The notes under the pieces are model-generated. The model saw only the letters and a list, made by a program, of their open reading frames with translations. It was not told where the DNA came from and ran no database searches. From the UHGV virus genome UHGV-0115894: a stretch of 28,088 nt of DNA, one strand, 5' to 3'. Positions 24,471 through 25,015 of this stretch are shown in pieces. Origin of the DNA: a virus. The translations under genes were made by a program, and so were the position numbers. The stretch's first letter is position 1; each line of letters begins with the position of its first letter.

Positions 24471-24499
24471 TTGTAGTTTTACAGTACCTGTACTATAGT
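24471..24499 (+). promoter_or_regulatory. Putative sigma70-type promoter for the plus-strand small gene
   Basis: TTGTAG, then a 17-nt spacer, then TATAGT, about 40 nt upstream of ATG 24538. Confidence 0.4.
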
Positions 24500-24537
24500 A
24501 AGTGTAACAAAGCGAGATACTACTAAGGATTGAAAAA

Positions 24538-24723
24538 ATGAATACAGTAACTTATGAAGTACGTGGTAACATCACCGACATTATCGTAAACGGTCAGTAC
24601 GTTGGTGCAGTAGTAAAAGGTGACGATAACAAGTACCGTACAGTACATAAGAACAATGCTACATCTGGTACATTTACGGCGTTTCACTTTGCGGCATACC
24701 ATGTAGAAAAAGCAGTACAATAA
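24538..24723 (+). CDS. Hypothetical small protein (61 aa), isolated plus-strand gene
   Basis: Strong RBS (AAGGA, 8 nt spacing), own promoter-like element and own terminator. Beta-rich small protein (MNTVTYEVRGNITDIIVNGQYVGAVVKGDDNKYRTVHK..). Confidence 0.55.
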   Translation: MNTVTYEVRGNITDIIVNGQYVGAVVKGDDNKYRTVHKNNATSGTFTAFHFAAYHVEKAVQ

Positions 24724-24727
24724 TAAT

Positions 24728-24749
24728 GGGGGATTTATCCCCCTTTTTT
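24728..24749 (+). terminator. Rho-independent terminator of the plus-strand small gene
   Basis: GGGGGATTTATCCCCC hairpin followed by TTTTTT, right after the stop at 24721-24723. Confidence 0.6.
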
Positions 24750-24760
24750 AATTATTTTCA

Positions 24761-24790
24761 GATAATAAAAAGCCCGCTATATGCGGGCTT
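24761..24790 (-). terminator. Rho-independent terminator after the lipoprotein gene
   Basis: Minus-strand reading AAGCCCGCATATAGCGGGCTTTTTATTATC: 8-bp GC-rich stem then U-run, 7 nt after the stop of 24797..25015. Confidence 0.55.
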
Positions 24791-24796
24791 CACTTA

Positions 24797-25015
24797 TCAG
24801 TAGTCAGCTAAACAGTTGTTACCAGGTCGGCGATACTTATGATCCAGTTCACTACACCATTGACCAGTCATTGGTAGTTGCTCACTATCATTAACTAACT
24901 TACCATTACCATCATAGATAATCTCTTGTGGGATGACTCCACTGTTAGGCTCATTAGTATTAGCGAATGCATTACTACAAAGTAAGATTGCTACTACGGC
25001 GATTAATTTTTTCAT
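24797..25015 (-). CDS. Small secreted protein or lipoprotein (72 aa); candidate Llp-like superinfection-exclusion protein
   Basis: N-terminal signal peptide MKKLIAVVAILLCSNAFA with a possible lipobox-like LLC or an AxA cleavage site. The mature part is about 50 aa with two further Cys. Followed by its own terminator. Confidence 0.5.
   Translation of the reverse strand: MKKLIAVVAILLCSNAFANTNEPNSGVIPQEIIYDGNGKLVNDSEQLPMTGQWCSELDHKYRRPGNNCLADY

Follow-up and report, generated by a model that had tools for sequence, protein, structure and literature searches.

Phage T5 Llp (PDB 8A60, 7QJF) and the Cor proteins of phages T1, phi80 and N15 represent one device, an exported phage mini-protein, about 60 residues long when mature and held by an internal disulfide, which disables from the periplasm the outer-membrane receptor that the phage itself uses. 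Within the periplasm, the lipoprotein Llp, which has a single disulfide, binds FhuA from the inner side and refolds FhuA's external loops (PMC9586334), and an equivalent factor of phage Rtp has been reported to bind the periplasmic face of LptD. The 'type-C lipoprotein' Lpp010 (gp116 of phage mEp010) conferred exclusion of mEp010, mEp044, mEp554 and lambda when its gene was cloned on a plasmid and expressed; all four of these phages depend on the maltoporin LamB (PMC11893012). Here we compare with these systems a locus in the UHGV virus genome UHGV-0115894, a stretch of 28,088 nucleotides (hereafter, the window). The interval 24471..25015 of the window contains two small convergent open reading frames (ORFs), ORF61 on the plus strand facing ORF72 on the minus strand. 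What is new here is ORF72 as an atypically placed, probably anchor-less member of the recently characterized LamB-associated exclusion family.

ORF72 (24797..25015, minus strand) encodes 72 amino acids starting with MKKLIAVVAILLCSNAFANTNEPNSG, and ORF61 (24538..24723, plus strand) encodes 61 amino acids. The Shine-Dalgarno motif of ORF72, GAGG at 25022..25025 (minus strand), lies 6 nucleotides 5' of its ATG, within the final codons of the upstream gene ORF105; that of ORF61, AAGGA at 24525..24529 (plus strand), lies 8 nucleotides 5' of its ATG and is identical in L007, a variant prophage with 86–90% nucleotide identity to the window that served as the reference for codon comparisons. Between the window and L007, the codon differences in ORF72 (86% identical in DNA) are synonymous in 22 cases and non-synonymous in 5, and 21 of its 30 substitutions fall at third positions; ORF61 shows 12 synonymous and 4 non-synonymous differences, with 13 of 18 substitutions at third positions. 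Both are genuine genes under purifying selection, located and oriented as described in an earlier interpretation made from the DNA letters without database searches (the sequence-only reading). RefSeq annotates both products as hypothetical proteins. A megablast search of 24300–25340 against the phage collection gave no match, and Pfam and NCBIfam returned nothing above threshold for ORF72, ORF61, ORF105 or ORF76.

ORF72 is a member of the Lpp010/CAjan gp19 family of small exclusion proteins. It matches phrog_12984 ('lipoprotein') with an E-value of 5.9e-22, and the same family is matched by mEp010 gp116 (1e-26) and CAjan gp19 (7.5e-57). A tblastn search with ORF72 retrieved 44 phage records with 48–61% identity over 89–100% of the protein, among them Seuratvirus and Nonagvirus (CAjan, Seurat, slur01, 9g, KurtStettler), EP23-like phages, Enterobacter phage AS5 and the temperate phages mEp010, mEp013, mEp044 and mEp554. 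ORF72 and Lpp010 are ~55% identical (tblastn E-value 1e-17) and share the core PNSGVIP...LPMTGQWC...D...RR.G..NC with both of its cysteines. In the family alignment, ORF72 keeps all 18 invariant positions, including W53 and the two invariant cysteines of the mature part, C54 and C68. A word-indexed protein search with ORF72 found three proteins and an exhaustive search of representatives found seven, three of them real small homologues; the assembly collection contains the exact ORF72 protein in 164 of its indexed blocks. ORF72 had no match among PDB sequences. Two IMG/VR homologues (L053 and L054) have lost the C-terminal invariant cysteine (SNRVANY versus SNCVANY) and apparently have a non-ATG start; they may be decaying copies within the group whose members are linked to the gene for tail-tip protein J.

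The genomic setting of the homologues connects the family to a particular type of tail tip. In CAjan, mEp010 and AS5, the ORF72 homologue follows closely after the end of J and is encoded on the opposite strand, and it is at this position downstream of J that the BASEL study places cognate exclusion genes (PMC8594841). The window encodes a related distal J domain, as does mEp010: the ORF at 2498..3139 (minus strand, 213 amino acids), the C-terminal domain of a fragmented J, matches the last ~210 residues of J from CAjan (tblastn, residues 829–1040, 39%, E-value 2e-31), mEp010 and AS5, and also J of HK97 (37.6%) and KurtStettler (34%). LamB is the adsorption receptor of HK97 (PMC6832061), KurtStettler is lamB-dependent (PMC8594841), mEp010 is LamB-dependent (PMC11893012), and LamB targeting has been linked to distal GpJ domains (bioRxiv 10.64898/2026.04.02.716166). 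Because the receptor-binding C-terminus of lambda J shows no match to these J domains, the link to LamB rests on HK97, KurtStettler and mEp010, not on lambda J.

Full-length matches to the J domain of the window occur in 50 phage records among the matches listed, and 37 of the 50 carry an ORF72 homologue ~40 nucleotides past J; seen from the other side, 37 of the 44 records with an ORF72 homologue have a full-length J-domain match among the matches listed. CSP1C, CSP1, mEp010 and mEp044 combine a partial J-domain match (57–59% of the query) with an ORF72 homologue. Phages mEp013, mEp554 and STP-SP5 carry an ORF72 homologue and are absent among the 60 J-domain matches listed. In IMG/VR, each of the 30 loci that fall outside the window lineage has its J domain 35–88 nucleotides from the homologue, on the opposite strand in convergent orientation. 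Since the homologues co-occur with the LamB-type J domain both in phages and in IMG/VR, the most plausible reading of ORF72 is that of an exclusion factor cognate to a LamB-type tail tip, with the J domain at 2498..3139 as its likely partner and, by analogy with the homologues, LamB as its presumed target.

The position of ORF72 itself is different. It closes an early operon on the same strand as J and the rest of the genome, with 21.7 kb between it and the J domain, and the element that carries it is a defective serine-recombinase prophage unrelated to the mEpimmI phages and Seuratvirus. Among the receptor-binding-protein loci downstream of gpJ described in the BASEL collection (Drexlerviridae, Dhillonvirus, Queuovirinae), whose superinfection-exclusion accessory proteins include the LptD-binding Rtp factor, the ORF72 homologues form the LamB-associated variant, and the modular pairing of a J or receptor-binding-protein allele with a cognate exclusion gene applies to them. 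In the window, by contrast, the pair is separated and the exclusion gene is found within an early or accessory operon of a temperate element. The ORF 2498..3139 is likely the receptor-binding end of the prophage's broken tail tip; no exclusion gene follows it, and its place is taken by an 83-amino-acid ORF with transmembrane and coiled-coil segments (2192..2443) and a plus-strand lysozyme-like ORF (1707..2114).

The second departure from the rest of the family concerns the membrane anchor. ORF72 has an N-terminal signal peptide in which a degenerate lipobox, ILLC (Cys13), precedes a signal-peptidase-I-like site, AFA|N19. Scored against the pattern [LVI][ASTVI][GAS]C or a PS51257-type rule, ORF72 fails, with Leu at position -1 before the Cys, and the PS51257-type rule is failed by every variant of the window lineage (AILLCSNAFA in the window, AILLCTNAFA and AIALCCTAFA). 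All other family members tested differ from it in this respect. A canonical lipobox (LTAC, LTGC, MTAC, LAGC or LSAC) is present in 30 of the 30 IMG/VR homologues outside the window lineage, three loci that lacked one at first scoring being start-codon artefacts, and the rule is likewise passed by the homologues P0002, P0003, P0011, P0013 and those of CAjan, mEp010 and AS5, as well as by Llp (LSAC) and Cor (LTGC). Compared with the 30 other IMG/VR loci, the window lineage is thus the sole exception on both J adjacency and the lipobox, and the lipoprotein call of the sequence-only reading is not supported for ORF72. The A-F-A|N motif is kept in every window-lineage variant. Judged by this motif, ORF72 is probably cleaved by signal peptidase I after Ala18, yielding a soluble 54-residue periplasmic protein.

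Hairpins with a T-run follow both genes, so that each has its own terminator, as had been proposed from the letters. The ORF72 terminator (24769..24791, minus strand) is formed by GAAGCCCGC-ATATA-GCGGGCTTT with a T-rich tail; its 9-bp stem contains six G-C pairs and folds with -20.2 kcal/mol (z = -5.2). The ORF61 terminator (24728..24749, plus strand) is formed by GGGGGATTTATCCCCC (24728–24743; GGGGG-ATTTAT-CCCCC) followed by six T residues, with a fold of -11.3 kcal/mol. The scan that detected both found eight terminator-like sites in 23500–26000, against 0.8 +/- 1.1 in shuffled sequences, these eight being overlapping readings of a few hairpins, mainly the two between ORF61 and ORF72. L007 keeps the stems of both terminators despite changed loops. 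Rfam gave sub-threshold candidates only (rimP leader, MicX and Trp leader), which all fall over the two terminator hairpins and were rejected as terminator-driven.

Beyond its terminator, ORF72 does not have an insulated, promoter-bearing organization. A co-directional operon ends with it: ORF105 (25019..25336, minus strand), which encodes an acidic protein with no Pfam, PHROG or NCBIfam match, stops 3 nucleotides from the ORF72 start, and the promoter scan found no site upstream that would belong to ORF72 itself. ORF72 therefore is not an insulated unit, and ORF105 and ORF72 are probably co-transcribed. Because a further terminator-like hairpin with an 11-bp stem is located upstream, at 26232–26208 (26208..26232, minus strand; detected by scan), and is the likely upstream limit, the arrangement suggests a five-gene unit comprising ORF64, ORF71, ORF47, ORF105 and ORF72, which extends from ~26200 to 24769 and ends at the ORF72 terminator. 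Just downstream of the 26232–26208 hairpin there is a 14-bp perfect palindrome, TGCATATCTATGCA, at 26162–26175 (minus strand), with two more copies of TATGCA(T/C) at about 26118–26124 and 26099–26105; in the AT-rich leader of the unit, these elements may form a promoter/operator region.

ORF105 accompanies ORF72 in the window lineage only. The related prophages L016, L021 and L023 contain neither gene, and unrelated small genes fill the slot. ORF72 is, on this ground, variable cargo. In this it resembles the lambdoid morons (HK97 gp15, lambda lom and bor): the content of its slot varies between related prophages and it has its own terminator. It differs from them in lacking a promoter of its own.

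For ORF61 the relation is reversed. We compared four prophage lineages: that of the window and the metagenome relatives L016–L019, L021/L022 and L023. Homologues of ORF61 that are 68–77% identical across lineages occupy the same opposite-strand slot in L016–L019 and L021–L023, and between the recombinase and the terminase ORF61 is the only opposite-strand gene in all four lineages, convergent with the variable cargo. The terminase and portal of these relatives are only 39–49% identical to those of the window. Since slot and orientation are shared by four lineages that are so distant in their terminase and portal and differ in cargo, ORF61 is a conserved backbone gene and not a lineage-specific moron. 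ORF65 (23727..23924, minus strand) shows a related pattern: it is 58–72% identical across the prophage lineages, far above the terminase and portal, and has no family match.

The view of the sequence-only reading that ORF61 is a moron, taken here in the classical sense of a recently inserted promoter-gene-terminator cassette conferring a fitness trait on the lysogen, has several points in its favor, and part of the case for an autonomous unit stands. It is the only plus-strand gene in the accessory region, its ribosome-binding site is good, its terminator is strong (a hairpin with a T-run is also found 3' of the homologues in L016, L021 and L023), and its layout, if the putative promoter is real, is that of the lambdoid morons. 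Homologues in unrelated phages suggest mobility: tblastn found ORF61 in two phage records only, Klebsiella phage KLB5 (57%) and Salmonella phage PCSE1 (47%), in both cases in the early region. The part that does not hold well is the promoter. An opposite-strand gene such as ORF61 logically needs one of its own. The candidate sigma-70 promoter read from the sequence at 24471..24499 (plus strand; TTGTAG, 17 nucleotides, TATAGT) is weak, with 8 of 12 consensus positions; it fell below the threshold of the promoter scan and was not reported by it, and the corresponding hexamers in L007 differ (TTGCAC/TATCTT). Above all, ORF61 is present in all relatives examined, at one position and in one orientation, and it is the flanking cargo, including ORF72, that changes around it, so that it is part of the backbone and not extra DNA. 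We consider the moron interpretation unlikely.

As to what ORF61 does, a profile search gathered 29 proteins, none of them named or with a Pfam domain; 22 family members gave no match to Pfam or PHROGs, and the profile gave none to PDB sequences. The AlphaFold2 model, built on a shallow alignment, is a low-confidence all-beta meander (predicted local distance difference test, pLDDT, 62), and Foldseek searches of PDB and BFVD with this low-confidence model returned nothing at E <= 0.001. We tentatively suggest that the small ORF61 protein is an effector whose binding partner is a conserved factor of host or phage.

Taken as a whole, the locus is best explained, and with reasonable though far from complete confidence, as a relocated, probably anchor-less member of the LamB-associated exclusion family at the end of an operon in a defective prophage, with ORF61 as a separate backbone gene. 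ORF72 belongs to a family whose genes normally sit just downstream of J and convergent with it, in siphoviruses with a LamB-targeting distal J domain. The protein would be exported through its N-terminal signal peptide and, given the degenerate lipobox, would be cut after Ala18 by signal peptidase I, so as to become a soluble periplasmic protein rather than an acylated outer-membrane lipoprotein, with one likely disulfide between C54 and C68. By acting on LamB from the periplasmic side, it would render the cell refractory to LamB-using phages, among them those of the prophage's own kind, whose J C-terminal domain the window has retained. ORF72 would be transcribed last in the five-gene early or accessory operon, with transcription stopping at its own terminator. 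T5 llp is expressed during lytic growth, and ORF72 could act at that stage too, or in the lysogen if the operon is constitutive. ORF61 would be transcribed independently, facing the ORF72 terminator and diverging from the promoter of the packaging-gene unit; its product most likely binds a conserved host or phage factor, a site-specific immunity repressor being an unlikely role. A more far-reaching version, in which an outer-membrane-anchored lipoprotein has become a soluble LamB blocker, uncoupled from the tail-tip locus and retained by a decaying prophage as a domesticated host defense against lambda-like and Seuratvirus-like phages, with ORF61, which is better conserved than the terminase and portal of its phage family, as a possible effector expressed in the lysogen and directed at a conserved host or phage target, seems to us possible and not particularly likely.

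Several points weigh against the explanation that we favor. The activity ascribed to ORF72 is that of its homologues, and the tested one, Lpp010, is only ~55% identical to it. Lpp010 itself did not exclude the LamB-dependent mEp013, which indicates that specificity within the family is subtle (PMC11893012). The AlphaFold2 model of ORF72, again from a shallow alignment, has low confidence (pLDDT 57), and a Foldseek search with this low-confidence model against PDB and BFVD found nothing at E <= 0.001 and did not retrieve Llp. The lipid anchor, present in every other member, is apparently gone from ORF72, and the assignment of signal-peptidase-I cleavage is a rule-of-thumb reading of the A-x-A motif and not the output of a predictor. 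An anchor is thought to be necessary for T5 Llp in vivo, and the in vitro efficiency of soluble Llp was reported to be very low (PMC9586334). The function of ORF72 may therefore be altered, and the apparent loss of the anchor may have left the protein weakened, retargeted or inactive. Promoter-like sites in this region are rarer than in shuffled sequences (9 versus 13.1, and 20 versus 31.6), and no specific function of ORF61 has positive support. Finally, LamB has no plug domain, so the solved Llp–FhuA mechanism is not simply transferable.

The state of the element bears on the possibility that ORF72 has lost its function. Nearly all genes of the window are on the minus strand, and its G+C content is ~35%. 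The same DNA is present at >= 99% identity in 7 of 5,426 complete Escherichia coli genomes, such as O169:H41 F6326-C1 and F8111-1SC3, where a 521-amino-acid large serine recombinase, adjoining a truncated yegD, flanks the element. The window is a defective E. coli prophage integrated in yegD via this type of recombinase; the prophage origin had been correctly anticipated, and the defect is evident from the fragmentation of the terminase, the portal and J. The large terminase gene (19647..21617) is broken over frames -1, -2, -3 and -1 into ORFs of 205, 141 and 288 amino acids, the portal gene (17633..19145) is split into 205 and 324 amino acids, and J (2498..6036) is in at least three pieces of 354, 377 and 213 amino acids. 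The splits recur in independent complete E. coli genomes (L009, L012 and L014), with exact fragment sizes that vary by assembly, and the metagenome relatives L016–L019 and L021–L023 have an intact terminase in a single gene of 601–629 amino acids.

Against this background, ORF72 might be a functionless relic that lost its anchor and J linkage and is decaying along with the defective prophage, and the degenerate lipobox in all variants of the window lineage agrees with that. However, the reading frame of ORF72 is intact and its divergence from L007 is dominated by synonymous changes, every family-invariant residue is retained, the ribosome-binding site and the terminator are conserved, the exact protein recurs in the assembly collection, and the conserved A-x-A site would rescue export. 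Given the strong purifying selection, ORF72 is unlikely to be a dead gene, and we regard the relic interpretation as quite unlikely.

The geometry of the locus suggests a role for ORF61 as immunity repressor or switch regulator, with the divergent promoter region 24386–24537 as its site of action. ORF61 diverges, in a cI/cro-like manner, from a unit that leads to the packaging genes: a promoter-like site at 24419..24447 (minus strand; TTGACG, 17 nucleotides, TAGTAT), found by the scan and with both hexamers kept in L007, probably marks where transcription of the downstream unit begins, which passes through ORF76 in the direction of the terminase genes. No further candidate for a repressor came to light, and the palindrome TAGCTA is repeated upstream of the ORF61 homologue in the other lineages, with four, seven and four copies in L016, L021 and L023, respectively. 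Yet the protein is 68–77% identical across lineages and TAGCTA is absent from the equivalent intergenic region of the window and L007, so that a conserved protein is unlikely to read such lineage-specific sites. Nor did ORF61 show a helix-turn-helix, a ribbon-helix-helix, or a Pfam or PHROG match, its model is the low-confidence all-beta meander described above, and its homologues occur in arrays of co-directional small genes (the early regions of KLB5 and PCSE1, and the lytic-type contig L024), a poor setting for a lysogeny repressor. This role is distinctly improbable.

The TAGCTA clusters merit description in their own right. The palindrome, often in the form AATAGCTACTA, is found at 7898–7991 in L016, 6837–6969 in L021 and 6662–6964 in L023, and second small clusters are present in L016 (6436/6462) and L021 (5429/5445/5507). 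Operator sites or iterons are possible interpretations. In these lineages, the genes that come first downstream of the TAGCTA region gave no DNA-binding domain and lack mutual homology. In the window, a search of 24300–24800 gave no convincing operator-like repeats.

That ORF72 is an Llp/Cor-type lipoprotein blocking the ferrichrome receptor FhuA is hardly credible: its size (72 amino acids versus 77 and 75), its MKKL... signal peptide with a Cys at about 13–17, the two cysteines of the mature part and the phage context all fit, but T5 Llp and T1 Cor match phrog_1119 (1.1e-19 and 3.3e-30) and ORF72 matches phrog_12984 only, without cross-hits, BLASTP against Llp (a sequence identical to PDB 8A60 chain B) aligns just the signal peptide (E-value 0.068) and against Cor gives 7.6, the lipobox rule fails, and the family co-occurs with LamB-type J domains and has a tested member that excludes LamB-dependent phages. 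The likeness to Llp drawn by the sequence-only reading therefore does not extend to a shared family, whereas the functional analogy is sound, in that ORF72 is a secreted, Cys-containing mini-protein of the receptor-blocking, superinfection-exclusion kind, likened to Llp and Cor through its homologues only. Apart from the absence of any detectable sequence relationship, the systems differ in that Llp grips the plug of FhuA, a TonB-dependent transporter, and LamB is plug-less, and in that Llp and Cor have canonical lipoboxes and genes beside the receptor-binding-protein gene, neither of which is true of ORF72.

Elsewhere in the window, we noted several features outside the two genes. Three copies of GTTTAGTA/TACTAAAC, with four copies of the 7-mer TACTAAA, are packed into ~60 nucleotides at 22174–22231, within the 800-nucleotide gap that directly precedes the small-terminase gene (21517..22038); they could be a packaging site or a late-regulator site. 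The ORF at 26527..27078 (minus strand) matches positions 78–242 of the 255-position phrog_3820 (DNA methyltransferase) with an E-value of 2.6e-65, and, on the evidence of this alignment, has probably lost its N-terminal part. At 27589..27921 (minus strand) lies a small GIY-YIG/T5orf172 nuclease-like gene. RefSeq annotates a 'tRNA-OTHER' at about 27394–27462 (minus strand), corresponding to CP024269 916685–916753, and ARAGORN found no tRNA or tmRNA in the whole window.

Small exclusion proteins that silence outer-membrane receptors govern which phages can infect a strain, and this bears on phage therapy and on the prediction of host range from genomes. The placement of ORF72 indicates that an exclusion gene can lie elsewhere than at the receptor-binding locus, the place in which annotation pipelines and comparative methods look for it. 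ORF61, for its part, is a marker of an unannotated small protein family common to temperate and lytic-type enterobacterial phages. To our knowledge, the mechanism by which LamB is closed to phages has not been solved, unlike that of Llp and FhuA. If the anchor-less form of ORF72 works, it would be a natural experiment on the need for a lipid anchor, and would provide a soluble reagent for studying how phages close LamB, a plug-less porin.

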